Shown here piece by piece: positions 6,641-47,051 of a stretch of DNA of 64,000 nt (position 1 is the stretch's first letter; each line of letters opens with the position of its first letter). The translations under genes were made by a program, and so were the position numbers. This DNA comes from Limnobacter sp. Its GTDB lineage: Bacteria; Pseudomonadota; Gammaproteobacteria; Burkholderiales; Burkholderiaceae_B. The notes under the pieces were generated by a model. It was given only the letters and a program-made list of their open reading frames with translations. It was not told the DNA's origin and did not search any database. The stretch lies in assembly GCF_036405155.1 (NCBI RefSeq), contig NZ_DASWYD010000010.1, positions 53,118 through 117,117 of the forward strand, given 5' to 3'.

Positions 6641-6657
6641 GCCCGAGGAGGAACACC

Positions 6658-6861: not shown

Positions 6862-6882
6862 GCCAGGGCGTTTGAAAGGGCA

Positions 6883-8313: not shown

Positions 8314-8403
8314 GTCTCCGCGCAAATTGTTGTCGTTGTGGTGTTCTGTTTAAACGGGTACTTCATTGGAAGGCGGTTTGGATGCAAGCCCACCCATCAA
8401 CCC

Positions 8404-9213: not shown

Positions 9214-9305
9214 GCGGCTGTTGGCTCCTCGGTTTTGTCGTAGGCTTGCTGCCCTTTGTTGTTGAGCACAGTTTAACCCCGGCCTTGCCCGCCTTCCAGC
9301 CTGTC

Positions 9306-9920: not shown

Positions 9921-9937
9921 CCGTAGACCCCTTTGCC

Positions 9938-10369: not shown

Positions 10370-10478
10370 AACGCATCTTCAGTTTTGTGTATTGTCACCC
10401 GCTGGTTTTATTGTTACATTGAACACTGTCACCTTTAACCGTGGCAAATAACAAAAGCACCTGTGTAGGAGTCAAACC

Positions 10479-32210: not shown

Positions 32211-32648
32211 GCCAAGGCGTCGGTGTTGTACAAACCTGATGGTAAATCAAGCGGGGACCAGTGATGAAACCCGAACACGACTCCAGTGGTTTTGTGGCTT
32301 GACGCCCGTGCAAATTGGAGTAAACACTCCAATCGAAACGACTGTTAACATGCTGATTTACAAGTGTTTTATTGACATCGAACGCTGTCAGCATTCGAAA
32401 TTTCCGTTACTCATCAGTAACATTAAGCAGATGATTTGATTGTTGAATTCCCCGCTTTGAAAATATCGCTTGCCAGTTTAACAACAGGCGTATCTGCGTC
32501 TAACCCCTGTCAACGACACGCCAAAAACAAGGGTTTTAGGTTTTTTACCACGCTTGTCAGGGCTAACCCTCTCCCCTACACTGCACTGAGCAGTCCGTCG
32601 ATTTACACCACATACAACAACATTTACCCCTTTCGGGAGACAGTTGAC

Positions 32649-35120
32649 ATGCGTCTCGTTTCATCCGGCTTCATCCCCGGCTTCACTGCTGCGACCCTGC
32701 TTGCAGCCCTGACTTGGGCACCTGTGGCCCAAGCACAAACAGCAACATCCAATTCAGCCACCAAAATTGAGAAAAAAACCGGCTTGGTGGATGTGAGCAA
32801 GGAGTACTGGCCCGAAGCCGGCAAATACCCGGTGCCCAACACCCCTTACCAACACACCCTGCGCTCGGTGTCGCTGGAGGACCTGGCCAAGCGCAATGTG
32901 CTGCCCTTGGGCATTTACCAGGGCACCCCACAACTGAATGCCAACAAGGACTGGTACGAGAAAAACTTCTACGCCACCCTGGCCGCAAAAAAAGTGTGGA
33001 ACCCAGGCACCAGCCCCAAAACGCACCAGTTCCAGGGCCCCATTACCTGGAAATACGAACCCATTCCCCAACTGCCTCCCCCACCGTGTGACCAGCCCCA
33101 ACCCACTGGCTACGACGCCGAGGGTTGCCGCTATGTGAACACCCTGTTCAAAGACGTGGAAGCCAAAGACCCTGCCAAGGCCAAACAACTGCGCGAGCAG
33201 GTGCGTCGTGGTCGAGACGTTTGGTTCAAAGGCACCTTTGGAAACCAGGACGAGCCTTACCTGCACTTCGCCCGCGCTGCGGGTGGACAGGACAAAATCT
33301 GGTACCCCTGGCTGGACACCCGTGAGCGCAAGCACCGCTTCACCAAGTACGGCCTGATCAACGACCCGGACTGCACCGAGGGCGATGCCTCCACCAACTG
33401 GTGGGACAAGTGCCCCGACCCGCACAGCAGTGGTGTGTTGGGCTACCGCCGCTACTACGCCGACCCGGTCAAGGACGAAAAAACCGGCAAGGTGGTGTTT
33501 GACCCGCAAACCTCCCCCTACCGCAAAGACGAATTGCAGAAAAACATGCGTTATGTGGTGGGTCACCCCTGCGTGCAGTGCCACGTGGGCATCGACCCCA
33601 CCAACCCACCGAAAGACCCCAACCAACCGCGCTGGGAAAACCTGTCGGCCACGATTGGTAACCAACACATTGTTCAGCCCTTGATGTTCTTCCAGGGCAC
33701 CGACCATGATGCCGTGGTTCGCCAAGTGCTGAAGGCCGGGCGCCCTGGCACCATTGACACCTCGCTGGTGGCCAATGACTTCCAGAACAACCCGGGCACC
33801 CAGAACAACATCATGGACTTCCAGAACCGCCGGGTTTTTGAACATGTCATGAAGGACCCCGTCACCGGAGAAATCAAGAAAGGCCTGACACAGCACGTGC
33901 TCAAAGGCGGCGAAGACTCGGTGGGTGATCGCTTGGCGCTAATCCGCGTGTACGTCAACATCGGCATGTGCACCGAAGAATGCTGGGCCCCCAACTTCCC
34001 AACACCGGGCAAGTTGTTTGGTAAAAAAGCCAGCCAAAGCCCGTTCTCCATCAAACAGTGCGCCGCCGAATGCGAGCCCTGGAACTACGCGGACGCGAAA
34101 ATGGAAGACTTGGCTGCATTCCTCATCACCGGTGGCCCCACTTACCTGGGCAATGCAAAGGATGTGGATGGCTCAGCCGGCTTGAAGTATGTGGACTTCA
34201 GCAAAGTGCCCCAAGGCCGCAAAGTGTTTGCCCGTGAATGCGCCAGCTGCCACTCCTCCAAAGTGGCCCCGGAAAACATTCGCCGTGACAAAGTCGCACT
34301 GGAACGTTTCTATGACGGCCATGTGTTTGGTTCAGAGCAATTCTGGAAATACGAATTCACCGACGAGGAGCGCAACTCGGCCAAGTTTGTGGCGCAGTAC
34401 ATGGCCAAGGACGACAAAGGCAACTTGCGTCCCAAACAGTTCGCCAAAGATGGCGTGTTTGGTCAGGACTGGCTGGGCAATGATGAGCTGACGCCCTTCC
34501 ACGAAATTGGTACCAACATGTGCCGTGCCCTGCACGACAACCACAACAAGGGCCACATCTGGGAAGAGTTTTCATCGGAAACCTACAAGCAACGCAAAAG
34601 CCCAGGCAAGGTGGATGTGACGATCAACCGCATGGTGCCCGGCTTGGGCGGCACCAAAGTGGGCGAACGTGAAATCACGGGTGGCCCTGGCTACCTGCGC
34701 AACATCAGCCTGCTGTCCGTGTGGGCCACCGCACCCTTCCTGCACAACAATGCGATTGGTGAAATGCCCGTGCAAAAAGACGGCACGCCCGACTCGACCG
34801 TGGCAGGCCGCATCAAGGCCTTCGAGCAAGCCTTTGATGAATTGATGATGAGCGACGACCCCAAGGTCAAGCCATCGCGTCCGGTGAAAATTTCCACCAC
34901 CGACACCGACATCAAACTGGCCCTGCAAGAAGACCAGGGTGGCCTGGTCAAACTGCCAGTGAAGAAGGGCACGGAAATTGGCAAGTTCACCAGCAGCGAC
35001 CCGCACCACCCACTCACGCAAAAGTGCGATGATTTGGTGGAGAACAAGGGCCATCAGTTTGGCGTATCACTCTCAAAGGACGAAAAGCGCGCCCTGCGTG
35101 AATTCTTGAAGTTGATGTAA
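32649..35120 (+). CDS. secreted di-haem c-type cytochrome, cytochrome-c-peroxidase-like C-terminal region
   Basis: The ATG at 32649 follows GGGAGA. Signal peptide MRLVSSGFIPGFTAATLLAALTWAPVAQA. CxxCH motifs at nt 33570-33584 (CVQCH) and 34239-34253 (CASCH). LRNISLLSVWATAPFLHNN resembles the LRNVALTAPYFHDG motif of bacterial di-haem peroxidase/MauG proteins. Confidence 0.75.
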   Translation: MRLVSSGFIPGFTAATLLAALTWAPVAQAQTATSNSATKIEKKTGLVDVSKEYWPEAGKYPVPNTPYQHTLRSVSLEDLAKRNVLPLGIYQGTPQLNANKDWYEKNFYATLAAKKVWNPGTSPKTHQFQGPITWKYEPIPQLPPPPCDQPQPTGYDAEGCRYVNTLFKDVEAKDPAKAKQLREQVRRGRDVWFKGTFGNQDEPYLHFARAAGGQDKIWYPWLDTRERKHRFTKYGLINDPDCTEGDASTNWWDKCPDPHSSGVLGYRRYYADPVKDEKTGKVVFDPQTSPYRKDELQKNMRYVVGHPCVQCHVGIDPTNPPKDPNQPRWENLSATIGNQHIVQPLMFFQGTDHDAVVRQVLKAGRPGTIDTSLVANDFQNNPGTQNNIMDFQNRRVFEHVMKDPVTGEIKKGLTQHVLKGGEDSVGDRLALIRVYVNIGMCTEECWAPNFPTPGKLFGKKASQSPFSIKQCAAECEPWNYADAKMEDLAAFLITGGPTYLGNAKDVDGSAGLKYVDFSKVPQGRKVFARECASCHSSKVAPENIRRDKVALERFYDGHVFGSEQFWKYEFTDEERNSAKFVAQYMAKDDKGNLRPKQFAKDGVFGQDWLGNDELTPFHEIGTNMCRALHDNHNKGHIWEEFSSETYKQRKSPGKVDVTINRMVPGLGGTKVGEREITGGPGYLRNISLLSVWATAPFLHNNAIGEMPVQKDGTPDSTVAGRIKAFEQAFDELMMSDDPKVKPSRPVKISTTDTDIKLALQEDQGGLVKLPVKKGTEIGKFTSSDPHHPLTQKCDDLVENKGHQFGVSLSKDEKRALREFLKLM

Positions 35121-35122
35121 AC

Positions 35123-36901
35123 ATGGCAAAACGAACACGGGTTTGGATGGCCTTGGCCACTGTGGTGGCAGTGGCTGCCGGGTGGAACTGGATGCGGGAT
35201 GACCAGGCCCGCAGCCAGGCCAGTGTGACTGCGCTGGCCAAGGTGGCGGACAAAACTGATCCACACCTCGCGCTCAGCGCCACGGTGCTGGCCGACGGCG
35301 ACCTCCCGCCGGAAGGCACCCGCTCCCTGTTCGACCATGTGGCCGCCCAAAACGGTGGCGTGCCTTACCCGTTCCCCAAACTGATTGAAGCCCTTCAAAA
35401 AATGAACCCGGAGGGTGCTCCCCCTGTGGCGGTGATGCTGCCCCATGGGCGGTCCTTGTTGAAAGGCCAGGCCGATGATGCACACCCCCGGGTACTGCTG
35501 GCTGCCGACTTCCAGGCGCCCAACACACCGGCTGCATTGGGGGTGAACGCGCGGGGCCAGTTGTTTTTGGGCTTTGTTGAAAACGCCAATGAAATTGAAG
35601 TGCTCAGCTACAACGAAGCGGCAGGCCGTTACGAATTTCAATTGGTGCAAGACTATTCGGCAACGGGTGCGCGCAAGCTGGTATACGCCCGTCGGCAAAT
35701 TTGCCTGACCTGCCACCAAGGCGGTGCGCCCATTTTTCCGCAACGCCCCTGGAACGAGACCAACGCAGCCCCCGACACAGTAGAAGCCATGCTGCGCGCC
35801 CGCACCAAAGCCGGGCTGGACACTCAAACTTACCTTGGCTTACCCTTGCAGAACACACTCAGTTCGCCCGAGCGGTTTGATGAACTGACCGATGTGGGCA
35901 ATTTCTTCGCGGCCACCCAAAAGCTGTGGCTGGATGGCTGTGGCGACCAAGGCAATACATCGGTCGATTGTCGAAAAACCATGCTCAAATTGGCGCTGCA
36001 ATACAAGGTGCGTCCGGGCGAGTTCAAAGAAGAGGGGGCGCTGGTTGCACGTTTAAAAACCCTTCAAGCCAAAGCCTTGGGCGACCGCACCATCGCGGTG
36101 GCCGAGTCTGACCTCACCAACCGCGACCCGGTGGCAGAGCAACAAGGCATCAAGGGCTGGTGGCGCAACCTCACCACTGCACGCATTCAACTGGGCGATG
36201 GCGCCAAAAACAACGAAGACCTGGAAGCCTTTGACAAGCTGCCCAAGCTGCCTTTGGCGCTGGACCCGCTCACCAAACGCGCCCCCAAACGAATCCTGAC
36301 CGCTGCCAATATTGATGGTGCCTACGGCTTGGCCAGCCTGCTGACCGAAAGCGATGTCAACACCCTGATGGAAGCAGCCAACTGGCAATTCGACAACCTG
36401 GCCAATGCAGTGGACAAGCTGCCCGACGCCCTGTTTCAGGCCAAGCCCTTTGAACGGGCCAAAACGGTTCAGGCCTTGATGAAAAGTCCGGAATTGCCCA
36501 AGGTACGCAGCAATGGCCCGGTTCAACTGGCGTATGTGTTCACGGATGTCAGCGACATGTCGCCACCCATTGCCACTGGCGTTCCCCCGCTGCAATTGAA
36601 AGCAGGCTCATCGCTTGAGCCTTTTGAAACCTATTGTTTCTCGTGCCATCGCGGTAACCCAGCCAAGCGCCTCAACTTCATGGGCGCGGACAGTGAAGAC
36701 AAAGTACTGGCCCAAATGCGCGACAAAACCGAAATTCGGGACGCGCTGGACTGGGAACGCTATGAGGGCACCGAGAAGGCGTCGATGCTGATGCCACCCC
36801 GAGATTCAAAACAATATGCCCTGCTGGTTGAAGACCAGAAGAAAAACCCCAAGCTGCGAGAACAGATGCGGGCTGTCGTGCCCAGCCTGTTCGGCTTCTA
36901 A
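35123..36901 (+). CDS. membrane-anchored or secreted di-haem c-type cytochrome, unknown family
   Basis: 592 aa with an N-terminal hydrophobic segment, VWMALATVVAVAAGW. CxxCH at 35702-35716 (CLTCH) and 36635-36649 (CFSCH). Starts 2 nt after the upstream stop. Confidence 0.7.
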   Translation: MAKRTRVWMALATVVAVAAGWNWMRDDQARSQASVTALAKVADKTDPHLALSATVLADGDLPPEGTRSLFDHVAAQNGGVPYPFPKLIEALQKMNPEGAPPVAVMLPHGRSLLKGQADDAHPRVLLAADFQAPNTPAALGVNARGQLFLGFVENANEIEVLSYNEAAGRYEFQLVQDYSATGARKLVYARRQICLTCHQGGAPIFPQRPWNETNAAPDTVEAMLRARTKAGLDTQTYLGLPLQNTLSSPERFDELTDVGNFFAATQKLWLDGCGDQGNTSVDCRKTMLKLALQYKVRPGEFKEEGALVARLKTLQAKALGDRTIAVAESDLTNRDPVAEQQGIKGWWRNLTTARIQLGDGAKNNEDLEAFDKLPKLPLALDPLTKRAPKRILTAANIDGAYGLASLLTESDVNTLMEAANWQFDNLANAVDKLPDALFQAKPFERAKTVQALMKSPELPKVRSNGPVQLAYVFTDVSDMSPPIATGVPPLQLKAGSSLEPFETYCFSCHRGNPAKRLNFMGADSEDKVLAQMRDKTEIRDALDWERYEGTEKASMLMPPRDSKQYALLVEDQKKNPKLREQMRAVVPSLFGF

Positions 36902-36917
36902 GCCAGAAGGAGTCCCC

Positions 36918-37709
36918 ATGTTTCAAAGTACCCTGCAGCCCGCTTTGCGCAAGCTTGGCCTGTCTGCTGCACTGCTGGCCCTGTCCATGACTGCGGCACA
37001 AGCCCAGCCACTGTTTGCCAATTTGTACAAACAACAATATGGCTACGCCCCCGCCTGCACCGCCTGTCATCGGGACGGTGGCGGCTCCCCATTGAACAAC
37101 TTTGGCAAGCAGTTCAAGGACGCAGGCGAAAGCCTGGCCGCCTTCACCAAAATTGCCGACCTGGATGCCGACGGCGATGGCTTTAAAAACGCTGTAGAAG
37201 CCATGGCCAAAGCCAACCCCGGCGTGAAAGAATCCACACCCAACAACAAAGGGGCATGGTTGGACATTTCCAGCCTGATTCCCAAAGAGGTGCAGGACCA
37301 GTTTCCGGATGTGAAGGAATACTTGCCACGCGATGCCTTCCTGACCCCACAAGACATTGAGCGGGCCAAGGGCATGGGTGCAGTGCTCAGCCAGAAGGAC
37401 GACAACACCATTTACATACCGCTGAAGGACAAGCGCCCCGCTGGGGCGGCCTTGATTTTTCCGGCGGAGTACCAAGGCAAAGCCTTTTTCCTGATGCTGG
37501 TCACCGATCGGCAATTGACCATCACCAGCGTGCAGCCCATCAACACCCGCCAGGTGAAAGAGGCCGCCAACCCAGCGTTGTATGGCGGCTTCAAAGGCCT
37601 GGCGCTGGACAAGCTGACTGGGGGTGATGGCAAAGACCTGAAGGCTGCCGTGGCCAATGCGGTGAAGAAAGCAGGTACTCTGGTGTTTGTCCGATTGAAA
37701 ACCGCCTGA
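36918..37709 (+). CDS. secreted mono-haem cytochrome c with degenerate FMN_bind-like C-terminal domain
   Basis: AAGGAG lies upstream of the ATG at 36918. Has a signal peptide. CTACH at 37056-37070, an Asp-rich DLDADGDGF loop, and a C-terminal FFLMLVTDRQLTITSVQPINTRQ...LTGGDGKDLKAAVANAVKKA that resembles an FMN-binding domain lacking the usual S/T flavinylation motif. Confidence 0.65.
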   Translation: MFQSTLQPALRKLGLSAALLALSMTAAQAQPLFANLYKQQYGYAPACTACHRDGGGSPLNNFGKQFKDAGESLAAFTKIADLDADGDGFKNAVEAMAKANPGVKESTPNNKGAWLDISSLIPKEVQDQFPDVKEYLPRDAFLTPQDIERAKGMGAVLSQKDDNTIYIPLKDKRPAGAALIFPAEYQGKAFFLMLVTDRQLTITSVQPINTRQVKEAANPALYGGFKGLALDKLTGGDGKDLKAAVANAVKKAGTLVFVRLKTA

Positions 37710-37731
37710 TAACACGGCAGGGAGTTGCAAC

Positions 37732-38553
37732 GTGCTGAAGTGGATTCGACAAGCCGGGTTGATGTTGATGCTGTCCCTGGGCCTTGGGTTTGGCGCCAAC
37801 CTGTGGGCAGCAGGCTCAACAGCTGAGCCTGCAACCCCGACCAACGCCGACGCATCCTTCGATTTCTTCAGCGACAAGCCTGTTGAAAGTCAGGATGTGG
37901 TGGTGATTCCGCCCGAGCAGTCCCATTGGATTACGGTGGGTGGCCCCATCGCCCTGCTGCTGTTCGGCGGTTTGATATTGTGGATCACGAAACTGCTCAT
38001 CCCGTTTGACAAGCACTCGGTGGACATCAACCTGCGTAACTTTCCACCTGCTGCAAAGCGGGGCATGGCCATTGCTGTGGTGCTGTTTGGCATTGCATTT
38101 GCATTTGGCGCCAGCGAAATTTGGTATCAGATGCAATTTTTTGGCAGCTCGGCAGAATTCATCAAGGCCATGTCACTGGGCAAACTGATCGTGATGACCC
38201 ACGCCCACCTGTTCGGCTTCACCACCGCCTTTTTCATCGTGGGCATTCCGTTCTCGATGCAGTTCAACCACATCCGCCTGTATCAGTGGATTTTCCCCAT
38301 TGGCCTCACAGCATCCCTGATTGATGTGATGAGTTGGTGGGGCATCAAGTACATCGCCAACTCGTTCGAGATGGTGTCGATGGTGTGCGCGCTGCTCTTC
38401 TCGGGTAGCTACCTGTGGATGCTCATCGGCTTGCTGCGCACGCTGGCATTCCCGGAAGTGATTTGGGCATCCGACAAAGACCGTGCCTTGCGTGCTGAAG
38501 AGCTGAAACGCAAGAAAGCCGCCAAGCGGGAATTTCGGAAGTTTTTTAATTGA
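37732..38553 (+). CDS. integral membrane protein with conserved-looking His pair (THAHLFGF)
   Basis: GTG start 8 nt after GGGAG. Signal/anchor segment plus about 5 TM helices and a Lys/Arg-rich C-terminal tail. Last gene of the cytochrome operon. Confidence 0.6.
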   Translation: MLKWIRQAGLMLMLSLGLGFGANLWAAGSTAEPATPTNADASFDFFSDKPVESQDVVVIPPEQSHWITVGGPIALLLFGGLILWITKLLIPFDKHSVDINLRNFPPAAKRGMAIAVVLFGIAFAFGASEIWYQMQFFGSSAEFIKAMSLGKLIVMTHAHLFGFTTAFFIVGIPFSMQFNHIRLYQWIFPIGLTASLIDVMSWWGIKYIANSFEMVSMVCALLFSGSYLWMLIGLLRTLAFPEVIWASDKDRALRAEELKRKKAAKREFRKFFN

Positions 38554-38634: not shown

Positions 38635-39165
38635 ATGAGGCTACCCATGCCCCCCGCATTCCAATATTCAAAGTCCCGTTTTTCATGGCTGTTTGCGCCA
38701 GCCGTCTTGGTGTTGTGCGCACTCCCATTTCGTTCCGCGGAGGCGTTTTTGTTCAAAAAATATGTGTATTGCTCTCCCATGGTTGGAGAAGTCCATTGGG
38801 CTGGAAAACCCCTCCCGGGCCTCATCATCAAGCGCACTTTGAAAAGTGGTGGCTTTAAAGGTGGGCGCTACGACGATGAAACGGTGACAGATTCATCGGG
38901 GCACTTCGAATTGCCTGTTGTTGAAAATCGCCGCTTTGTCACACCCGATTTTTTTTCAGCAAATCCGCAAGTCTCACAAAGCGTAAAAACCTCGCTGGAT
39001 GGTGTGGATTATTACCTTTGGTCTTGGTCCATCAACCAATTTGAATTGGGTGCCGAAGGATTTGGAAAACGGATGTTTTTTGATTGCGACCTATCCATCC
39101 ATGAACTGATTGGCGGGACCCCATTGGTGAAATGCACAGTATCCGGAAGAAAGACCTATGAATGA
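38635..39165 (+). CDS. secreted protein with carboxypeptidase-regulatory-like beta-sandwich (candidate lipase immunity/partner)
   Basis: Signal peptide ...WLFAPAVLVLCALPFRSAEA. GKPLPGLIIKRT...TVTDSSGHFELPVV resembles the CarboxypepD_reg fold. The stop overlaps the lipase start (ATGAATGA). Confidence 0.55.
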   Translation: MRLPMPPAFQYSKSRFSWLFAPAVLVLCALPFRSAEAFLFKKYVYCSPMVGEVHWAGKPLPGLIIKRTLKSGGFKGGRYDDETVTDSSGHFELPVVENRRFVTPDFFSANPQVSQSVKTSLDGVDYYLWSWSINQFELGAEGFGKRMFFDCDLSIHELIGGTPLVKCTVSGRKTYE

Positions 39166-40351
39166 ACTTAACCCAGCCTCGGTTTATGAATTCGCGCGTC
39201 TGGGCTACGAGGCAAAGACATGTGATCAAGCTGAGCTAACGCGGCAGCTTCGTACATTCCCCCATTTGAAACTGGAGGCCAACTCGACAACCATCCTCAC
39301 CGGCGCTGCTGGCTTTAAATCATCCACCCTCAGTGGGTTCGGCTTCTGGGTTGAGCTGGGTGGCGCTCGTCAGGGGGAAGTGGTTCTGGCCACACGGGGC
39401 ACCATGGACAGCTGGGCAGACATCGAAACGGACATGGATTTTCCGTGTGTCTTGGGCCCAACCGGTCATCCAGTCCACCAAGGGTTTCAAAACACCTTTC
39501 AAAGCTACGTGCAGCAAATTGAGCACCTCATTCACCAACGGGGTCCCAACCGCAGACCCAAAGCCATTCACTGCATCGGTCACAGCCTGGGAGGGGCATT
39601 GGCAAACCTGAACGCCGCGGCATTCAATGAACTGGGGCTAACCACCTACCTTTACTCATTGGCGGCACCGCGCGTGGGGCGCTGGACCTATGCAGAGCAT
39701 TTGAGCGGTTCGCTACCGGCAGCTCGGATCAGACGGATTGCAAACCAATCCGACGTTGTCACCATGGTCCCCTGTTTTCCCTACATGCACGCGCCCTATC
39801 AACATGGCCATGTTCTGCTGGACGGCAGTATGTTTAAAATCAGTGCCAACCAACACCGCCTGGGTGTTGGTTACACCAGCATGAAAAACCGAAGCTGGGA
39901 CCAACTTCTGCGTGACACGCAAGGCAAACAGGAATTGTTGAAACAGCGATTGACCGGCGCATTGAGTGCAGGTGACGGCTTTATAGAGGGCCTAAGCCGT
40001 TTCACTGGTGCTATGTTTTCAGGTGAGTTGTTGAATGTACTAAGCAATGCCCTCCACCTGCTCATGAAGAGGGCTGGCGTGGGTGGATTGACATCTGTGC
40101 AGTTTTTCGGCACAGGCGCATTTACCACGCTGGATCAAATTGCTGAAATCCTTTGCAGCTATGCCCGGGGGGCAGCCAAAGCCACTCAACAAGTGAAGCT
40201 TTGGCTGAATGGCGTGATGGCTTTCTTGGGAAGAACCGGACAAGCGGTGGCCGATGCCTCCATCGGCACCATCCGCTATGTATTCAACCTATTGCGCAAC
40301 GCCTTGGAACAATTGGCGAAACAGGCCCTTCAAAAAGCCCAATCACTTTAA
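39158..40351 (+). CDS. class 3 lipase family protein (candidate Tle2/TseL-like effector)
   Basis: Nucleophile elbow IHCIGHSLGGALA and downstream NQSDVVTMVP (Asp). No signal peptide. The helical C-terminal region of about 150 aa is of unknown function. Confidence 0.75.
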   Translation: MNELNPASVYEFARLGYEAKTCDQAELTRQLRTFPHLKLEANSTTILTGAAGFKSSTLSGFGFWVELGGARQGEVVLATRGTMDSWADIETDMDFPCVLGPTGHPVHQGFQNTFQSYVQQIEHLIHQRGPNRRPKAIHCIGHSLGGALANLNAAAFNELGLTTYLYSLAAPRVGRWTYAEHLSGSLPAARIRRIANQSDVVTMVPCFPYMHAPYQHGHVLLDGSMFKISANQHRLGVGYTSMKNRSWDQLLRDTQGKQELLKQRLTGALSAGDGFIEGLSRFTGAMFSGELLNVLSNALHLLMKRAGVGGLTSVQFFGTGAFTTLDQIAEILCSYARGAAKATQQVKLWLNGVMAFLGRTGQAVADASIGTIRYVFNLLRNALEQLAKQALQKAQSL

Positions 40352-40764
40352 TAACCGCCGAGCTTGGCGAACTGAACCACCCAGTACGCCGCAATGCCCC
40401 ACTGAACCACAAAGAATGCAAAACGTGCCTGCACAGCGATGTTGCTGGTTGAAATGAGGTGCACGGTGGACTGCAACACGCGGGCCCCCAACAGGATGCA
40501 CGCCAAGCCGTCGGTCACGCTGGTGTTGCCGGTGGCCAAGGCCAACAGCAGCGGGCCTGCCAGGTATGGAAAGCCTTCGTACATGTTGGCGTGTGCGCGG
40601 CACAAACGCTGGGAAAACGGGCTGACGTCAGCGCCATCTGGGCTATAACTGTTGGCAGGGCGTTTGGTGAAGGTGGTCAGCCCAGCGCGGATCAACCAAA
40701 TCATGCCGAGTAAAACCAAATACCAGGCAATCAAACCATTCAATGCCAAGGCTGTGTTGCTCAT
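40348..40764 (-). CDS. MAPEG-family membrane protein
   Basis: 138-aa product from the ATG at 40764, preceded by AAGGAGA. Four hydrophobic helices and RAHANMYEGFPYF-like motifs. The 3' end overlaps the lipase gene by 4 nt. Confidence 0.55.
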   Translation of the reverse strand: MSNTALALNGLIAWYLVLLGMIWLIRAGLTTFTKRPANSYSPDGADVSPFSQRLCRAHANMYEGFPYLAGPLLLALATGNTSVTDGLACILLGARVLQSTVHLISTSNIAVQARFAFFVVQWGIAAYWVVQFAKLGGY

Positions 40765-40820
40765 GCTGTCTCCTTGTTGTGTGTATTGAGCAAAATTAAC
40801 AGCCTGTAGCATAGCGGTTT

Positions 40821-43800
40821 TCAGGGGTTGCAGGTCAAATCACTGCCTCCGCCATCGCACGATACAGGCCGCATCAATTCTCCGGTGCCTTCTGTGGCCG
40901 GTCGCCCAGGCCCCACTTCCATCACCACCCCGTTGATCACCCGGTTGGTCACGTTCTCGGTGCGCACCACAGACAAGGTTTGTTCTTGCCGTGCCAGCAC
41001 CAAGGCACCCTGTGCAGAAATCAGTGCCGCCGATTCCTGCGGGGACAGCAGCAAGGACCCGTTGTAACTGACCGGAATTCGAGTCAAGTCACGGGCACCA
41101 TCGTAAAAGAATGCATACACGCCCGGGTTGTCCGGACCGGACAAAAACACCACCTGCCCGGGCAACTGGGATGCGCCGTTGTGTGGCAGCACCGTGACGT
41201 AGCCCCCAAGGCCCTTCCGGCTGGTTTCCCCCACCGACACGGCGATGGCTGTTCCCGCCGCATTGGCGTTGCCACCACCTGCGCCAAAAGGGTAAACCTG
41301 GCTGGCGCCCAGGCGGCCACCTTGAACGCTTGGAATGGACAAGGTCAACCCGGGGAAGGATGCCTGCACCCCCGCGGCGGTGTCGTTGTAGGGCAAGCGC
41401 GCACGGATTTGACTACCAGCCGCCGTGCTCAAGCCGGCAGAGGCAATGGCCACCATGTCGGCCTCAACACCAGCCCCATCTACGGACAGGGGTGCTGCGT
41501 TTTGCACACTCGCAAGGCTCAAGCCTTGATCGGGCCGGTAAGAATACGCTTCACCAGGAGATGAACCCGCCAACACCGTCAAACTGCCCGCGATGTCATT
41601 CATTTGATTCAAAAACACCGACCCATTGCCAGGTGTCCTGAAGCCGAGTCGGCTACCGGCCTGTGTTCGAATGGTTCCACCAGTTTGCTCAATCACCGGT
41701 GCTGCAACGTCGATACGGCCCAGGCCCGTGGTGGGCTCTACAGCGTCCTTTCCGGAATACACGTCCAGCGTTGCTGGCAGCTTGAGCGCAACATTCGCCG
41801 ACGACAAGGGTTGTGGAATGCCACGCGCCACAAAATTCAGTTGACCGGCACCCAAGGCCACGTTGCCATTCAAGCGGAGATTGCGCTCCACCTCCACAGT
41901 GCCACCAGCATCCAGCGCAAGCTGCCCCAGCGTCAAATCGCCCTGCGCCTTCAAGTCCAGCCGGTTGGCGGTCACATGCACATCGGACCCAAATTGATTG
42001 TTGTCACCGGTCAAGTCCACAACTCCGCCGACCGCATGGATGGTGGTTTGCCCGTCCACATGAACCTGTCCACCCTGGCTCACCGATTGAGCCTGAATCG
42101 TCAGTGCACCTCGGACCGTACTGTCACCCAATTGAAGCGCAGTGGCTTGCACCTGTGCATCGCCCTGCGTGTTCACCGCCAAAGGTCCATTCCACTGTGT
42201 GGCGTTCACTGTCAGCGAGGGTTGGTTGGATACAGAGGCTTCACCCTGGCCCACCAAAGTCAAGGTGCCATAAATGGCATTTTGTGGGTGATCCAAGTGA
42301 ATGGCCGATGCCTGAATGGTGGCATCCCCCCAGTGCACACCATTGTTTGGACCGGTGTTCTGTTGAACCTGGCTGGCCATCACGTTCACAGCGCCTTGAA
42401 CTTTGCTGTTGGCCAAACTGAGTTGATCCGCTTGCACGGTCAGCGATCCACCCACCTGCCCACCCAACGTCAGGTTTTCGCCCTGCACGTGCAAGTCATT
42501 TTGATCACTGAGCGTCGCCACCGCTTGAACGCCTCGGGTATTGCTCACCAACACCGTCTGTTTGAAATCGTTCTGGGCATTGTTCAGATTCACCTGGTTC
42601 GCGTCCAGCGCGGCAATGTCAACGGTCAGTGCACTTTTTTGCGAAATGGACTCGGCCTTTGCAGTCAACTGACCAATCCCGCCAGTGCTGTCAAACACCA
42701 CGGCCCGTGCATCCAGCACCGCCTGTTGCAGGCCGTCCGAATGCAATGTCAACACACCGTCTGCCTTGGCGTCCAGGTGACTCACCTGTGTGCTGATCAA
42801 CGCCACATCGCCACGGGCATTGAGTGTCAAGTCGTGCGCACTGGCCTCCACGGTTCTGGCTTGCGTTTGCAACGCCAGCATATTTTGGTCTGTGATTTGC
42901 ACACGGTCTGCCGTCACACTGACCACACCGCCAAAATCATTCCGTGCATTGGTCAGTGCCACCGTGTTGGCCACCAGGGTGGTGCCGCCTGCCACCACCA
43001 AGGGTGCTGTTTGCACAATGCTGCCTGCTGTGACGTCCAGTGTTTTAAGGGGCCCAGTGGCCAAGGTGGCCTCGCCTGCAGTGCGCAGTTTGAGCGAATC
43101 GGCTTGACCACGCACGGTCAGGCTGCGCTGCGAATTCAACGCGACATCGGCGCCCTGCACGGTAACCTCACTGCCCAACCGGTTTGCAGCGTGCTGCAAG
43201 TCGATGCGCTGCGCATCAAACTGACTGGAGCCACCCACAACCAATGGGCCCACTTGCCCGATCGATTGGGGGGCGCTGACCCGCAGTGTGGACCCGACCT
43301 GGCTTTGGCCCAGCGTGATTTGATCGTCACCAACCAACTGCGCACTTTCTGCAGTCAGGGTCACGGTGCCCCCCCAATGGTTGTCCGCTCGTGTCAGTTC
43401 AACGGACTGACCCTTGAAATCGGCAGAACCCCGCGACTGTACAACACCAGCCTGTGAAATGTTTCCCGGTGTTTGCACAGACCATGCATCGGCCTGCCCT
43501 CGCAACAACAGGTCGGACTGGGCAGCCAGTGCAACAGTGCCGGCATCCACCACAACGGGTCCGGTCAACTGGTTTTGCGTGTTCGACAAAGCCACCTGCG
43601 CCGCTTGCAAGGTCAAGGGCCCAGCCACTGTGAATGCGCCGTTTTGCGCCAGCCGTTGCGCACCCAGGGTTGTGTCGCCCAGGGTGTTTAAACCGCCGGT
43701 ACCCACGGTCAGGGTGTTGCCGGAATGGGCGTCCAAGGTGTTGGTTGTGCCGCTGACAGAATAGGACGATGTGCTGTCCAGCTTCGCCTGTTGGGTGTTC

Positions 43801-45332
43801 AACTGGACATTGCCCAGCCACTGGTTGCCCAAGTGTTGCAGAGTGACCGAGTGGGCCTGCAGATTGCTGTTTCCGCTGACCCGCAATGCACCCTGTTGGT
43901 CGATGGCTTGGTTGGTCTTCACCGTCAAACTGCCCACCGTGGTGGCATTGAAGTGAACCGAATCGGTGGATTGCACCGTGAGTGAATCCGCCTGAACCCC
44001 CAGCTGCAACGCTTGATTGGCCACCACATCCACCTGGCCAGCATTCACGGTCAAACCACCGCTCACCACCGGGTTGGCCAACTGAACACGCCCCGTGGCC
44101 GCCAGGTTCGCATCGTTGGCGGTCAGGTTAACCTTGCCAGACCATGTGTTGTTGGCATTGGCCAATGCGACTTGGTCGGCCGACACCGTGAGATCGCCGC
44201 CAATCGACAAGGCAGCATTGTTGGACATCGATTGCGAGACGGCCGACTGTGAGACTGTGTTTGCTGCAAACACCACATCGCCATCCACTGTCAAGCCGGT
44301 TGAGGCGATGGTGAGGTGTTGAGCACGGACCTGCACATGATCTGCCGTTCCGCCCAGTTGCACATCGCCTTGGGCTGTTAGTTGCGCACCACCGCCTGCA
44401 AGATTGACCCCCCCCTGAAACTGGTTTTGTGCATGGTCCAAGGTGAGGGCATTGGCTGTAAACGTTGCAGGGCCAGCCACATGGACCGCTTGGGTCTGAC
44501 CGACCAAGTCGGCCTGAACAGACAAGGCCCCATCGACCGTACCGGCCAGCATGATCTGGTCGCCCTGCGCAACCAGCGCTTGCGCTTGCGTCACGCCGGC
44601 CGTGTTGATCACACTGGGATTGCCATGGGCATTGCTGCGGGCCACCAGCATCACGGTGCCATCGGGCGCATTGATTTGCCCCAACTGCTGAATAAAGGCC
44701 TGCTCATGTCCTGCGTCCACCTGAAAGGCGATGAAGTCCCCCTGCAGGTTGGCAGTGACCGCACTGGCTGCCAACAGGCTGACTTGCCCACCGGGGCTGG
44801 TGCGCAAGGTACCCGTGTTCGACACGCTGGGGGCAACAAAGACCAGTTGTTGCCCCTCAATCACACCATCCACTTGAATGCTGCCCGCGTTTTTATCGGC
44901 AGTCAGCGTTAGATTGCCCTGTTTAACAGGCCCCTGCGTGTCCAGCGTAGAGGCCACCAAAGCCCCCACACTGACTTGGGCATTGGGCCCAAACACAATG
45001 CCGTTTGGATTGATCAAAAAAACGCGACCATTGGATTTCAATTGGCCAAAAATGTTGGACGCTGTGCTGCCTGTGACCCGATTGAGCATCACCGCCTGAC
45101 CATCCGGCTGAACAAACTGAACTGTTTCGCCTTCGGGCACCGAAAAGTTTTTCCACAACACCGTCGCCACTGGCGTGTCGGCTTTCTGATTCACCAGCAG
45201 GGTGTTTTTGACCGAGGTGTCCAGCGTGACGCCACCCCCAGGGTTGGCCTGATATTCGGGCAAGGCCAGCGCGGCACCGGAACAGGTCCACAACAGGGCA
45301 GCGGCCAGGGGCTTTCGCTTGAATGCGCGCAC
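40821..45332 (-). CDS. two-partner secretion exoprotein (TpsA, filamentous haemagglutinin-like adhesin; CdrA-like C-terminus)
   Basis: GTG at 45332, 9 nt after GGAG, gives the signal peptide (M)RAFKRKPLAAALLWTCSGAALA. TPS-domain motifs NTLLVNQ and FLINPNGIVFGPNAQV. Many beta-helical repeats of about 100 aa. TAAG at nt 41370-41381. C-terminal CDGGGSDLTC at 40830-40859. Confidence 0.9.
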   Translation of the reverse strand: MRAFKRKPLAAALLWTCSGAALALPEYQANPGGGVTLDTSVKNTLLVNQKADTPVATVLWKNFSVPEGETVQFVQPDGQAVMLNRVTGSTASNIFGQLKSNGRVFLINPNGIVFGPNAQVSVGALVASTLDTQGPVKQGNLTLTADKNAGSIQVDGVIEGQQLVFVAPSVSNTGTLRTSPGGQVSLLAASAVTANLQGDFIAFQVDAGHEQAFIQQLGQINAPDGTVMLVARSNAHGNPSVINTAGVTQAQALVAQGDQIMLAGTVDGALSVQADLVGQTQAVHVAGPATFTANALTLDHAQNQFQGGVNLAGGGAQLTAQGDVQLGGTADHVQVRAQHLTIASTGLTVDGDVVFAANTVSQSAVSQSMSNNAALSIGGDLTVSADQVALANANNTWSGKVNLTANDANLAATGRVQLANPVVSGGLTVNAGQVDVVANQALQLGVQADSLTVQSTDSVHFNATTVGSLTVKTNQAIDQQGALRVSGNSNLQAHSVTLQHLGNQWLGNVQLNTQQAKLDSTSSYSVSGTTNTLDAHSGNTLTVGTGGLNTLGDTTLGAQRLAQNGAFTVAGPLTLQAAQVALSNTQNQLTGPVVVDAGTVALAAQSDLLLRGQADAWSVQTPGNISQAGVVQSRGSADFKGQSVELTRADNHWGGTVTLTAESAQLVGDDQITLGQSQVGSTLRVSAPQSIGQVGPLVVGGSSQFDAQRIDLQHAANRLGSEVTVQGADVALNSQRSLTVRGQADSLKLRTAGEATLATGPLKTLDVTAGSIVQTAPLVVAGGTTLVANTVALTNARNDFGGVVSVTADRVQITDQNMLALQTQARTVEASAHDLTLNARGDVALISTQVSHLDAKADGVLTLHSDGLQQAVLDARAVVFDSTGGIGQLTAKAESISQKSALTVDIAALDANQVNLNNAQNDFKQTVLVSNTRGVQAVATLSDQNDLHVQGENLTLGGQVGGSLTVQADQLSLANSKVQGAVNVMASQVQQNTGPNNGVHWGDATIQASAIHLDHPQNAIYGTLTLVGQGEASVSNQPSLTVNATQWNGPLAVNTQGDAQVQATALQLGDSTVRGALTIQAQSVSQGGQVHVDGQTTIHAVGGVVDLTGDNNQFGSDVHVTANRLDLKAQGDLTLGQLALDAGGTVEVERNLRLNGNVALGAGQLNFVARGIPQPLSSANVALKLPATLDVYSGKDAVEPTTGLGRIDVAAPVIEQTGGTIRTQAGSRLGFRTPGNGSVFLNQMNDIAGSLTVLAGSSPGEAYSYRPDQGLSLASVQNAAPLSVDGAGVEADMVAIASAGLSTAAGSQIRARLPYNDTAAGVQASFPGLTLSIPSVQGGRLGASQVYPFGAGGGNANAAGTAIAVSVGETSRKGLGGYVTVLPHNGASQLPGQVVFLSGPDNPGVYAFFYDGARDLTRIPVSYNGSLLLSPQESAALISAQGALVLARQEQTLSVVRTENVTNRVINGVVMEVGPGRPATEGTGELMRPVSCDGGGSDLTCNP

Positions 45333-45347
45333 GATGAAAATCTCCAA

Positions 45348-47051
45348 TCAGAAGTTGTAGGTGACGGTGGCAAACAGGCGAGGGGTTTGCACCTTTGGGT
45401 CGGACTTGGGCTGCCCCTGAAGTGGCCAAGCCACACTCACATTGAGTGCAAACTGTCGGGTCATGTCCCACGACCAGGAAAAGCCATACCCGGCCAGTTC
45501 ATCCAGATTGTTGAAGCCCGATGGGCGTCCCGATGCATCGTTGCGATGGTGTACACGCCCCTGGTCGTAGAAGGCGTTCAATGACATGTTCCGACCAGCC
45601 TCGCCCAACCAGGCATGATTCAAAATGTGCCGAAGCTCCAGCGTGGCCAACGTACAGGTGTCACCCGCCGCCTCGCCTTGTGCAAAAGCGCGCACAGCGG
45701 TCGATCCACCCAAGGCACATTGGTCGCTGCTGTCCAGGTTGTCGTAGGCGTCCTGGCCGCGAACATGCGCCCACAGCATCCACTGACCGGCAATCAGGGT
45801 CTGCAAACGGGACAGGCTGTATTGACTGCGCAGTGACCGGGGTTCATCGTCCAGACCAAAGGGGCGGCCTGCCGGATAAAAAGTTTTGCTTTGCTCAAGC
45901 GTCCAGTTGAAAAAACTCAAGCCGCCACCGAAGGCGGCATCCCGTGCATCGCCGGAGAGGGCCAACCGAAGACTGTCAATGGTTTTTCGGGTCTCCAAAC
46001 CTGCCAGCGATTGTCGATCGGTCAGGGTGCGATGGTCCTGTCCAGCCAGTGCAAACAGGTTCAGGTTTCGGGATCGAATGAGCGGATACAAACCAAACAC
46101 ACCCACGGTGCTGGCATCCCCATTCAGGCCCAACGGAAAATCATTGTTGTTCAGTTGATAATGAACGGTGGATGCATTGAGCCCCAATTTAAAGCCATCG
46201 GCACCCACCGGCACGGTGTAACCCAACAGTGAAAACTCCAGACCACCGGTGTCCGATTGCAGGTGGCTGAACGACAATGAATCGCCCAACCCCAGAGGGC
46301 TTTCCCAATATCCGGAGAGCGTGGCGCGATTGCTGCCCGCGTAGCGCGAGCCATTGGCATCCAGCGCCAAGCTGCCTGACAACACTTCACCTTGGGAAGG
46401 CATGGCCACCAACACGGCAGTGCCGGGTTGATCGCCTGGTTTCACCGCAAAGCGGACATGGACTCCACGCAGGTCATTGAGCAAGAACACTACGCGCTCT
46501 ACCTCAGACACGCGAATGATTTGACCGGGTTTCAAGGCATTGAGGTGTGCTTCAATCACACTGCGTTTTACACGGAGCTCCTCCGCAGGCCACTGCACTT
46601 CCACCTTTTCCAACACGCCGGGCAGTACCTGTATGCGGACCACGCCATTGCTGACGTTTTGCGCAGGCAGATAGGCATAGGCCAAATACAGTCCAAGGTC
46701 GCGTTGCAAATAGGCAGTGACCACCTGAACCGCATTGGACAAGTCCTCGAAATGACGCCCCTTCCCCGTGTACGCTTGAAGTTGTTGGTGCAGGGCTTCA
46801 CTGTCCGCTGGTGCGTAGCCCACAATCTCAAAACGCTCAACGTCCACCGACACGTCGCTCAATGGTTTGGCCAGCTCCGGCGACACACTGGCCGGCAAAG
46901 CGGCTGAATGGTCAGACTCCGCAGGGCGCCCACGCTGTTCCTGCATGGGCATGGACTCGTTGAGCAGCGACGCTGGCGTGCTGACCTGTGCACCGGCCAA
47001 GGACTGCCATCCAATGCCTGCACACCCCAATAACACCGTCAGTAAACGCAT
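45348..47051 (-). CDS. TpsB outer-membrane transporter (ShlB/FhaC/HecB family)
   Basis: 567 aa with a signal peptide, a POTRA-like N-terminal region, a beta-barrel and terminal ...FATVTYNF. Located directly upstream of the TpsA gene. Confidence 0.9.
   Translation of the reverse strand: MRLLTVLLGCAGIGWQSLAGAQVSTPASLLNESMPMQEQRGRPAESDHSAALPASVSPELAKPLSDVSVDVERFEIVGYAPADSEALHQQLQAYTGKGRHFEDLSNAVQVVTAYLQRDLGLYLAYAYLPAQNVSNGVVRIQVLPGVLEKVEVQWPAEELRVKRSVIEAHLNALKPGQIIRVSEVERVVFLLNDLRGVHVRFAVKPGDQPGTAVLVAMPSQGEVLSGSLALDANGSRYAGSNRATLSGYWESPLGLGDSLSFSHLQSDTGGLEFSLLGYTVPVGADGFKLGLNASTVHYQLNNNDFPLGLNGDASTVGVFGLYPLIRSRNLNLFALAGQDHRTLTDRQSLAGLETRKTIDSLRLALSGDARDAAFGGGLSFFNWTLEQSKTFYPAGRPFGLDDEPRSLRSQYSLSRLQTLIAGQWMLWAHVRGQDAYDNLDSSDQCALGGSTAVRAFAQGEAAGDTCTLATLELRHILNHAWLGEAGRNMSLNAFYDQGRVHHRNDASGRPSGFNNLDELAGYGFSWSWDMTRQFALNVSVAWPLQGQPKSDPKVQTPRLFATVTYNF

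Follow-up and report, generated by a model that had tools for sequence, protein, structure and literature searches.

Four tightly packed, co-oriented genes (g1–g4) on the + strand of a Limnobacter genome, at positions 32649–38553 of the window (the whole 64,000-nucleotide stretch that was analysed), form one conserved unit and belong to an uncharacterised system that no known pathway explains. The first gene encodes what we presume to be the catalytic subunit, a very distant RoxA-like secreted di-haem enzyme of the oxygenase-type CCP superfamily. We tentatively read the four products as a membrane-tethered periplasmic redox complex built around this enzyme and acting on a lipid-derived substrate, while putting the odds of this reading at somewhat below even.

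A conserved four-gene operon

The genes of the operon and three elements upstream of it are listed below.

32331..32349, + strand, conserved motif AATCGAAACGACTGTTAAC, putative regulator site
32406..32421, + strand, 16-bp palindrome GTTACTCATCAGTAAC, putative regulator site
32554..32582, + strand, sigma-70-like promoter TTGTCA-17-TACACT, 5' of g1 (consensus scan)
32649..35120, + strand, g1, 823 aa (ORF call)
35123..36901, + strand, g2, 592 aa (ORF call)
36918..37709, + strand, g3, 263 aa (ORF call)
37732..38553, + strand, g4, 273 aa (ORF call)

The gaps between the genes measure 2 nt (g1/g2), 16 nt (g2/g3) and 22 nt (g3/g4), and the 2-nt gap suggests translational coupling of g1 and g2. This layout, given in a preliminary description of the DNA, was borne out by gene calls made independently for identical contigs in public data, with 823, 584, 263 and 273 aa for g1–g4 and a disagreement solely at the g2 start, shifted by 8 codons. 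The haem counts given there were likewise correct, with two CxxCH motifs in g1, two in g2, one in g3 and none in g4. All haem Cys and His residues of g1–g3 are invariant among 58 to 74 distinct homologues, and Sec-type signal peptides were recognised by inspection in g1, g3 and g4.

The g1–g4 set is kept together in approximately 160 bacterial species. All four genes were found in the same order in 66 of 80 related genome loci; 13 of the remaining 14 were cut by contig ends and one lacked g1. Counting only informative loci, 66 of 67 keep the strict g1-g2-g3-g4 order. They span three orders, with representatives in Limnobacter, Nevskiales and Pseudomonadales, and their flanks are unrelated, differing between Limnobacter, Nevskiales and Perlucidibaca. 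Conservation among the loci is highest for g1 (58–98% identity), compared with 39–95% for g2. The four genes had been described as lacking a recognisable pathway context; they are co-conserved beyond this genome and match no known operon, and no characterised pathway for them was found via curated Pfam/NCBIfam families, PDB relatives or papers. MAPEG and Lipase_3 genes adjoin the operon in this Limnobacter lineage, but these lipid-related neighbours are lineage-specific and not conserved along with it, and the downstream DUF6795 and Lipase_3 genes lie outside the module. No metal genes were found beside the operon in any lineage whose flanks were inspected. Many of the MAGs that supplied the loci were recovered from sand filters and groundwater.

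Upstream of g1, the core AAAC..TGTTAAC of AATCGAAACGACTGTTAAC is invariant in 7 of 7 Limnobacter upstream regions. The palindrome (GTTAC-N6-GTAAC) is present in four of these seven (the window, L005, L009 and L008) and degenerate in L018. The core CTTG of the promoter -35 element is invariant in the 7 aligned Limnobacter loci, with TTGTCA intact in 4/7, and the -10 element TACACT is intact in 6/7, with one mismatch in L008.

A distant RoxA-like di-haem protein

The motifs on which the placement of g1 draws are as follows.

33570..33584, + strand, haem motif 1 CVQCH, residues 308–312, invariant in 58 sequences
34239..34253, + strand, haem motif 2 CASCH, residues 531–535, invariant in 58 sequences
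34734..34751, + strand, MauG-type motif PFLHNN, residues 696–701
35049..35120, + strand, tail GH802QFG...ALREFLKLM, counterpart of RoxA GGH641DF...ALIEYIKTL

No curated family threshold was passed by g1. The model NF040606 (di-heme-cytochrome C peroxidase) matched residues 514–703 (E = 1.2e-11, 44.6 bits), covering only model positions 292–446 of 524 and not reaching the cut-off of 150 bits; it matched 41 of 41 g1 family members, all below threshold. Sub-threshold matches among the same 41 members were found to RoxB (28) and to Pfam RoxA-like_Cyt-c (35; residues 688–701 in g1), and the RoxA NCBIfam model matched only three of them (E ~4e-3). The g1 sequence itself scored 17.9 bits with the RoxB model and 15.5 bits with the RoxC model, and the equivalog cut-off of 900 bits for NCBIfam RoxA/RoxB/RoxC (NF050033, NF050034 and NF051462) was not reached. 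PF03150 (CCP_MauG) gave no match in g1 at E<=1 and matched none of the 41 members at E<=0.05. In a Foldseek search, the top and only sizeable match of the g1 model was RoxA 4b2n; this match was weak (E = 0.015, probability 0.51) and its TM values of 0.26/0.32 fall short of the ~0.5 same-fold criterion. The model is only moderately confident (pLDDT 72.9) and loop-rich, with 54% coil.

The peroxidase/MauG-like signature that had been noticed in g1 is real and can be described more precisely as RoxA-like. The motif LRNISLLSVWATAPFLHNN at residues 683–701 is present and conserved. Within it, PFLH699NNAIG keeps the P, H and N of P-[YF]-x-H-N-[GS]-S-V-P, and GSVP is absent. The protein has three colinear motifs in common with RoxA, namely CASCH, which is identical to the pentapeptide of the RoxA C-terminal haem motif, PFLHNN, which keeps part of the RoxA MauG-type motif, and the C-terminal GH...ALREFLKLM; the RoxA counterparts are CASCH394, PYFH517NGSVP and the GGH641 sixth-ligand tail (PMC6311187). 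The two haem motifs of g1 are spaced by 223 aa, as against 199 aa in RoxA and 235/245 aa in PA2078/PA2077 (PMC4496055). Approximately 32% of g1 positions are at least 97% conserved among 58 sequences from three bacterial orders.

By analogy with RoxA and CCP (PMC6311187), the CVQCH haem (H312) is presumed to be the active-site haem. H802 is invariant among homologues, and because the g1 tail corresponds to the GGH641 motif of RoxA, it is presumably the sixth ligand of haem 2, which would then be bis-His. The tail was aligned to RoxA through rhizobial di-haems (phmmer c491 vs 4b2n, 2.2e-6), and hhalign related g1 to the rhizobial RoxB-like di-haems (A1 vs A8) with 85% probability.

The closest detectable outgroup of g1 is a 929-aa rhizobial protein with 30% identity over ~490 residues (phmmer 5e-51), and such g1-like genes were found on 21 rhizobial plasmids. 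There they belong to an uncharacterised operon with the order OYE-type flavin reductase, di-haem, membrane protein, di-haem, g1-like, GMC oxidoreductase and patatin-like phospholipase (R. leguminosarum J3P71_RS31070-31040; S. fredii AB395_RS33070-33100). The partners are two RoxB-like membrane-anchored di-haems and a 143-aa membrane protein, with g2, g3 and g4 absent. Judged by sequence, g1 has distant relatives in lipid-enzyme operons. The C-terminal tail motif is kept in the rhizobial g1-like protein; H629, H632 and H699, invariant in the target family, are missing and the MauG-motif His is replaced by Leu, so the chemistry of the rhizobial proteins may differ.

The accessory proteins

The haem motifs of g2 (CLTCH at 194 and CFSCH at 505) are 311 residues apart, in line with the distance of about 310 given earlier. 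Its AF2 model is confident (pLDDT 81.7) and has an N-terminal helix at residues 2–24, a membrane helix that would anchor the protein. Foldseek returned nothing from the PDB below E = 0.8, and a PDB profile search returned nothing. Invariant residues include H72, H198, H509, M520, M557 and M582; the invariant M557-P-P lies 48 residues C-terminal of H509, a spacing that we take to resemble that of small class I cytochromes, and g2 is presumed to be an electron relay.

The single haem motif of g3 is CTACH at residue 47. The Asp-rich loop DLDADGDGF pointed out earlier is present, and D83, D85, D87, G88, N91 and E94 are invariant; the loop (D83–E94) is TSP3-like, with PF18884 not listed for g3 itself and a PF18884 TSP3-type Ca-binding repeat scoring 29.1 bits (cut-off 25) in the fused g3 homologue P0374. 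The preliminary description had also assigned to g3 an FMN_bind-like domain in which TGGDG replaces the usual flavinylation motif. The domain assignment held only in part: Pfam FMN_bind (PF04205) had no match in g3 even at E<=1, whereas one distant g3-like protein gave a weak partial match below the cut-off (E = 2e-3), and the C-domain may be a degenerate FMN_bind-like one. The replacement is no feature of the g3 family, in which TGGDG is not conserved; nor is any flavinylated S/T-G-A-T-like motif.

The g4 protein is a member of PF27139 (Aq_1264_TM), with a precomputed match for the identical protein P0241 and all 120 listed homologues. Besides its signal peptide, g4 has four to five hydrophobic helices in the hydropathy profile. 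The His pair of THAHLFGF, singled out earlier as possible ligands, is well kept even at 20–25% identity, H157 being invariant and H159 nearly so. Judged by hydropathy together with the positive-inside rule, the conserved residues (H157-x-H159, D198, W202, W203, K206, E213 and S216) would lie at the periplasmic face. Direct evidence of a quinone site or cofactor in g4 was not found, an observation that counts against a wire model.

P0374 and P0405 each combine a g3-like and a g4-like domain in a single protein. As separate genes, the two are neighbours in 11 of 20 distant loci, and the other loci are mostly contigs of 1.5–6 kb. The distant relatives have neither g1 nor g2; g3 and g4 make up a separable unit of older origin. 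These uncharacterised modules also encode an RnfG-like FMN_bind protein and an outer-membrane protein of porin-like type, and in some cases a class I cytochrome c. In L088/L089 they are flanked by copA-copB on one side and a Cu-type P-type ATPase on the other; in L102 the neighbours are a CsoR-type repressor and an efflux protein of the outer membrane, and in L085 the neighbour is ChrB_C. The remaining distant loci inspected have unrelated neighbours. The location of some of these modules in copper-resistance loci points away from a lipid reading.

Working model and alternative explanations

Gene order and co-conservation, the haem motifs, the homology of g1 to RoxA at the level of motifs, the fusion and adjacency of g3 and g4 and the g2 membrane helix are observed; that the proteins form a complex, that it connects to quinone, what class of substrate it acts on and which way electrons run are inferred. 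In the reading that we favour, g1 would be the enzyme, with the CVQCH312 haem as its active site and the CASCH535 haem bis-His through H802. The di-haem g2 would be held to the membrane by its N-terminal helix, and the mono-haem g3 would sit on the four- to five-helix membrane protein g4. Together, g2, g3 and g4 would act as a wire from g1 to the inner membrane, most simply to the quinone pool; this is suggested by M557-P-P and the N-terminal helix of g2 and by the fusion of g3 and g4 in distant relatives. The accessory chain might supply electrons, for reductive activation or peroxide reduction, or remove them. The substrate would probably be hydrophobic and lipid-derived, for instance an isoprenoid or unsaturated acyl chain, or the hydroperoxide of one, because the rhizobial g1-like operons hold lipid enzymes and MAPEG and Lipase_3 genes adjoin the Limnobacter operon. 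Since the characterised RoxA, RoxB and PA2077/78 need no partners, the three accessory proteins argue against a simple dioxygenase.

Among the alternatives, a split quinol:peroxide oxidoreductase, modelled on E. coli YhjA or on a cytochrome c551/CCP pair and spread over four proteins, would draw electrons from quinol and hand them on via g4/g3 and then g2 to g1, where periplasmic H2O2 or organic peroxide would be reduced. It needs exactly an electron-supply chain, g1 belongs to the di-haem CCP superfamily, and g2 would be membrane-anchored like the extra haem domain of YhjA (PMC10301912). We nevertheless consider it unlikely, as PF03150 matches none of the 41 family members at E<=0.05, the C-terminal haem of g1 appears bis-His (H802) like that of RoxA and not His/Met like those of CCPs, RoxA has no peroxidase activity (PMC6311187), and the low reported potentials of the RoxA haems (PMC4496055) imply that ubiquinol, should g1 resemble RoxA, would have to reduce it against the potential gradient. 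Less probable again is metal handling, with g3/g4 and their redox partners g1/g2 oxidising or reducing periplasmic Cu(I)/Cu(II), Fe or Mn at a site formed by the H-x-H/D/E/WW face of g4. The conserved g4 residues are all typical metal ligands at the predicted periplasmic face, the modules in L088/L089, L102 and L085 lie near copper/CsoR/ChrB_C genes, and sand filters and groundwater yielded many source MAGs; yet g1 and g2 are missing from these metal-linked loci, the neighbours at the other distant loci inspected are unrelated, and metal genes flank the target operon in no lineage.

It is about as improbable, or slightly more so, that g1 works by itself as a dioxygenase, as RoxA and PA2077 do, with g2–g4 as an unrelated electron-transfer unit in the same operon. 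Partner-free action of the characterised relatives would fit, as would the occurrence of g3/g4 without g1/g2 and of rhizobial g1-like genes without g2–g4, but the order kept in 66/67 informative loci from three orders with different flanks, and the coupling suggested by the 2-nt g1-g2 gap, argue otherwise. A MauG-like role, in which g1 would modify neighbouring g2 or g3 to produce a protein-derived cofactor or cross-link, draws on the MauG-type motif in g1 and on the fact that genes of MauG-type di-haem enzymes (MauG and MbnH) lie beside those of their protein substrates. We give it very little credence, as g1 lacks a PF03150 match and is the most conserved of the four proteins, which is unusual for a maturation factor, and the operon holds no candidate quinone-cofactor enzyme.

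To our knowledge, large RoxA-like di-haems are known for only three activities: they cleave rubber, dioxygenate oleate or isomerise hydroperoxides, in each case without partners. A strongly constrained g1, encoded with its own cytochromes and membrane protein, would widen the known roles of the RoxA scaffold. The operon also offers a first lead on what the Aq_1264_TM family does, and likewise for a 590-aa di-haem fold without a solved relative. A bolder form of the favoured reading, to which we assign roughly one chance in four, is that g1, unlike any RoxA-type di-haem enzyme before it, is wired directly into the respiratory membrane through g2 and the haem c/Aq_1264_TM pair, so that oxidation of a hydrophobic substrate, or reduction of lipid hydroperoxide, in the periplasm is coupled to the quinone pool. 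If true, this would be an extracytoplasmic lipid redox system of a new kind, with g2 and the haem c/Aq_1264_TM pair as previously undescribed wire components. The hosts occur commonly in groundwater, in sand filters and in communities that degrade hydrocarbons, which would give ecological relevance to a role in the turnover of lipids, hydrocarbons or peroxides.

Comparison with known systems

Di-haem CCP and MauG resemble g1 in carrying two haems in one secreted polypeptide with an electron-accepting C-terminal haem domain. The sixth ligand of that haem is Met in CCP and Tyr in MauG, and these enzymes also have a Ca2+ site and a bridging Trp; g1 is twice their size and its C-terminal sixth ligand is probably His, going by the tail motif. 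The quinol peroxidase YhjA, a membrane-anchored tri-haem protein with a CCP_MauG domain, shares with the proposed g1–g4 chain the idea of a membrane-linked electron supply (PMC10301912). It bears three haems on one polypeptide, whereas those of g1–g3 are spread over three proteins without a CCP_MauG domain. The PF27139 modules show the same pairing or fusion as g3/g4 and keep the H-x-H...D..WW..K...E..S signature down to ~25% identity, but differ from the operon in lacking g1 and g2 and in having FMN_bind and porin-like genes.

PA2077/PA2078 (the P. aeruginosa oleate-diol synthase, 'FadCcp') are periplasmic RoxA-like di-haems that act on unsaturated fatty acids, and are set beside g1 by published description only (PMC4496055). 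They form a two-gene operon of paralogous enzymes and, unlike g1–g4, come without accessory cytochromes or a membrane protein. RoxA and RoxB (Steroidobacter cummioxidans, 4b2n) are, like g1, large, loop-rich, secreted di-haem c-type proteins, and the tail GGH..F...AL.E(Y/F)(I/L)K(T/L)(L/M) with the sixth ligand is common to them and g1. RoxA cleaves polyisoprene with an O2-bound ferrous haem, an active-site F317 and an inter-haem W302. Its MauG-type motif reads PYFHNGSVP, compared with PFLHNN in g1, which is ~150 residues longer and carries 10 additional invariant Cys. The extracellular RoxA needs no redox partners for its activity, whereas g1 always comes with g2–g4.

Gene organization and conservation of the operon

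The ORF list and a script agreed on four closely packed genes on the forward strand:

32649-35120, +, gene 1 (g1), 823 aa, di-haem protein
35123-36901, +, gene 2 (g2), 592 aa, di-haem protein
36918-37709, +, gene 3 (g3), 263 aa, mono-haem protein
37732-38553, +, gene 4 (g4), 273 aa, membrane protein

The intergenic gaps of 2, 16 and 22 nt (g1/g2, g2/g3 and g3/g4) given in the preliminary description were confirmed, and its CxxCH counts (2, 2, 1 and 0 in g1 to g4) were borne out; its overall account of the operon was essentially right. The haem residues of g1 to g3 are all invariant among 58 to 74 distinct homologues. GGAG-type ribosome-binding sites lie upstream of g1, g3 and g4. Gene calls on identical public contigs were 823, 584, 263 and 273 aa. 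Only the start of g2 is in doubt, being ambiguous by eight codons, and the Limnobacter humi orthologue, 95% identical to g2 of the window, is annotated as 592 aa. The GC content is unremarkable. The host is a Limnobacter, and g4 is identical to a protein from a Limnobacter MAG.

When a g4 alignment was searched against 185,579 species genomes, 162 of them proved to carry a relative. The order g1-g2-g3-g4 was colinear in 66 of the 80 best loci, while contig ends cut 13 and one (L080) had no g1 within 10 kb. Hosts were Limnobacter and other Burkholderiales, many genera of Nevskiales, and Pseudomonadales including Perlucidibaca, and flanking genes varied between the Limnobacter/Burkholderiales, Nevskiales and Pseudomonadales lineages. 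Identity to the window proteins was 58-98% for g1, 39-95% for g2, 46-91% for g3 and 49-82% for g4, and approximately 32% of g1 positions were at least 97% conserved. No curated family threshold was reached by g1, and PDB sequence and profile searches with the four proteins returned generic CxxCH matches or nothing. A literature search found no papers on 'Aq_1264' or on Limnobacter or Nevskia cytochromes. The operon is real and conserved, and it is uncharacterised.

Several loci departed from this layout. In L080 (positions 1-10657, an Ectothiorhodospiraceae MAG), g2 to g4 were present; an 886-aa ORF downstream of g4 was considered as a substitute for g1 and proved unrelated, with a spermine-synthase-like domain. 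A gene for a ~210-aa YdjM-like membrane protein was inserted between g1 and g2 in L001 (12524-13156) and about 10 other Nevskiales loci. Colinearity was also interrupted in L074:2940-9144 and L057:6846-10001, that is, by a 6-kb insert between g2 and g3 in one Nevskiales MAG (peptidase S15, amidohydrolase and TetR) and a 3-kb insert between g3 and g4 in another. HIT, FA_hydroxylase and a 660-aa SDR/FAR-like gene recurred as neighbours in Nevskiales only and were judged inherited synteny.

Upstream and downstream regions

A sigma-70-like promoter (TTGTCA-17-TACACT, 32554-32582) is conserved among seven Limnobacter loci, as are two further upstream motifs, which may be sites for a regulator:

32331-32349, AATCGAAACGnnTGTTAAC, upstream of g1
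32406-32421, palindrome GTTACT-N4-AGTAAC, upstream of g1

No convincing intrinsic terminator was found 3' of g4. Directly after g4, DUF6795 and Lipase_3 genes (38635-40351) overlap by 8 nt. They were rejected as an extension of the operon, being confined to the L. humi lineage and found in no other loci; given the T6SS FHA, PP2C and two-partner-secretion genes nearby, they may be a lipase effector/immunity pair inserted after g4. A MAPEG-family membrane protein gene (40348-40812, -) is convergent with the operon, and in L. litoralis (L007:10752-11171) a MAPEG gene likewise follows g4 directly. Further along, 40821-47051 (-) encodes a two-partner secretion pair, namely a 1508-aa TPS-domain/DUF5649 exoprotein and a 567-aa POTRA_2/ShlB transporter, with Pfam assignments taken from identical Logan contigs. 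Cellulose synthesis genes bcsQ, bcsA (GT2 plus PilZ) and bcsG occupy 1575-6640 (+). The 833- and 577-aa ORFs at 2405-6640 were rejected as a second g1/g2 copy: they are BcsA and BcsG, alike in size alone.

Partner proteins encoded by g2, g3 and g4

The AF2 model of g2 was confident (pLDDT 81.7, pTM 0.74), with an N-terminal helix at residues 2-24. Foldseek against the PDB gave nothing below E = 0.8, and the PDB profile search found nothing. Invariant candidate haem ligands are H72, H198, H509, M520, M557 and M582. M557-P-P, 48 residues after H509, appears to resemble the ligand loop, Met-Pro-Pro, found in small class I cytochromes.

In g3, no invariant His or Met was found besides H51, so its haem is predicted either to be five-coordinate or to take a ligand from elsewhere. 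Its Asp-rich loop is invariant. The FMN_bind-like domain previously ascribed to g3 was not detected there and survived only as a weak partial match in a distant homologue, while the TGGDG sequence, read earlier as replacing the flavinylation motif, is not conserved.

The g4 protein belongs to PF27139 (Aq_1264_TM), a small family of 97 clusters at 50% identity with E<1e-3 among 1.8 billion representatives. H157, D198, W202 and W203 remain invariant even among relatives with 20-25% identity, and H159, K206, E213 and S216 nearly so; judging from hydropathy and the positive-inside rule, all these residues would sit where helices 3 to 5 reach the periplasm. Several relatives of ~500 aa fuse a g3-like N-terminal part to a g4-like membrane domain. 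Of the 20 metagenomic loci recovered through distant g4-like proteins, 11 had a detectable g3-like gene, adjoining or ~2 kb off, and most of the others were contigs of 1.5-6 kb. Neither g1 nor g2 was detected in any of the 20. These distant modules repeatedly included a porin-like protein and an RnfG-like FMN_bind protein, with a class I cytochrome c in some cases. The g4-like and porin-like genes overlap by a few bases in several loci. Relevant here are P0425 (595 aa) and L085:9025-10852: in one family member, the g4-like inner-membrane domain runs on into a porin-like C-terminal region whose last residue is aromatic, which is either a real, odd fusion or an artefact of a frameshift or of gene calling.

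Rhizobial relatives of g1

A tblastn search against plasmids identified 21 rhizobial plasmids encoding a g1-like protein of 929-1032 aa (30% identity to g1 over ~490 residues plus the C-terminal motif; phmmer 5e-51); g2, g3 and g4 had no match in the plasmids. The operon is conserved at L105:3430-15781, L106:3417-15794 and L107:8068-15883 on rhizobial plasmids. Its gene order in Rhizobium leguminosarum and Sinorhizobium fredii is:

1, NADH:flavin (OYE) oxidoreductase
2, membrane-anchored di-haem protein (PYLHNGSVP)
3, 143-aa membrane protein
4, second di-haem protein
5, g1-like protein
6, GMC oxidoreductase
7, patatin-like phospholipase

Both di-haem proteins preceding the g1-like protein (itself di-haem, 929 aa) are RoxB-like and membrane-anchored, with PYLHNGSVP. 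In Mesorhizobium, a gene for a 1562-aa GMC protein comes after the g1-like gene. This context is lipid-oriented, in line with the substrates of characterised RoxA-like enzymes, and the operon seems a candidate for a bacterial oxylipin or lipid-oxidation pathway, here in plant symbionts. It is apparently new to the literature; a search on its gene set found no paper describing it. H629, H632 and H699, invariant in g1 of the target family, are not conserved in the rhizobial protein, and the chemistry of the two subfamilies may differ.

Relationship of g1 to RoxA

The rubber oxygenase RoxA (4b2n) was the sole large Foldseek match of the g1 AF2 model (pLDDT 72.9, pTM 0.77; 34% helix, 11% strand, 54% coil), and a weak one (E = 0.015, TM 0.26/0.32); PDB sequence and profile searches with g1 gave generic cytochrome c matches only. 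Below the curated thresholds, g1 residues 514-703 matched NF040606 ('di-heme cytochrome c peroxidase') over the C-terminal half of that model at 1.2e-11, and the segment ~688-701 matched RoxA-like models. The pattern held across the g1 family: NF040606 was matched by all 41 members, Pfam RoxA-like_Cyt-c by 35, RoxB by 28 and the canonical CCP_MauG domain by none. The hallmarks of RoxA are CSACH195, CASCH394, PYFH517NGSVP and H641, the sixth ligand of the C-terminal haem (PMC6311187). Three matching features occur in the same order in g1: CASCH535; PFLH699NN, a partial match that shares P, H and N with the RoxA motif and lacks GSVP; and the C-terminal tail VENKGH802QFGVSLSKDEKRALREFLKLM, which aligns gaplessly, at the extreme C-terminus, with RoxA GNDNGGHDFTQSLTDSERWALIEYIKTL. 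The tail correspondence is supported through the rhizobial RoxB-like di-haem proteins: one of them matches 4b2n at 2.2e-6, and the g1 family aligns with them in hhalign with 85% probability (E = 7e-6). The haems of g1 are spaced 223 aa apart, compared with 199 aa in RoxA and 235/245 in PA2078/PA2077, the oleate-diol synthase pair of Pseudomonas aeruginosa (PMC4496055), a spacing that fits the oxygenase branch. Taken together, these results place g1, as a highly diverged protein, in the RoxA-like branch of the di-haem peroxidase superfamily; it belongs to no characterised family.

Proposed role and alternative explanations

The reading with the best support is a periplasmic complex tethered to the membrane. 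In it, g1 would be the enzyme, a di-haem protein of RoxA-like type, g2 would act as a di-haem relay anchored in the membrane, and g3/g4 would form a separable haem c/membrane unit of older origin. The activities of the sole characterised relatives, the rhizobial context and the lineage-specific neighbours (MAPEG, Lipase_3) point to a substrate class that is probably lipid-derived and hydrophobic. A peroxidase or a reductively activated oxygenase requires electrons. Flow towards ubiquinone would be equally plausible if the g1 haems were as low in potential as those of RoxA (PMC4496055). The earlier guess, a periplasmic oxidant-detoxifying or substrate-oxidising module exchanging electrons with the membrane protein, is a reasonable hypothesis.

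Rival readings are a quinol peroxidase, a MauG-like maturase, a stand-alone dioxygenase and metal redox handling. Distant g3/g4-like modules are found with copA-copB on one side and a Cu-type P-type ATPase on the other (L088:4524-17968 and L089), beside a CsoR-type repressor and an outer-membrane efflux protein (L102:1229-7026), and beside ChrB_C (L085:5864-10852), which hints at a metal-related role for Aq_1264_TM; neighbours of the other distant loci are unrelated to metals.

The operon combines an enzyme of the di-haem peroxidase/oxygenase superfamily with partners that are novel and dedicated to it. A specialist would find it surprising that a well-predicted di-haem protein such as g2 has no PDB match, and that a RoxA-like enzyme is always accompanied by cytochromes and a membrane protein.
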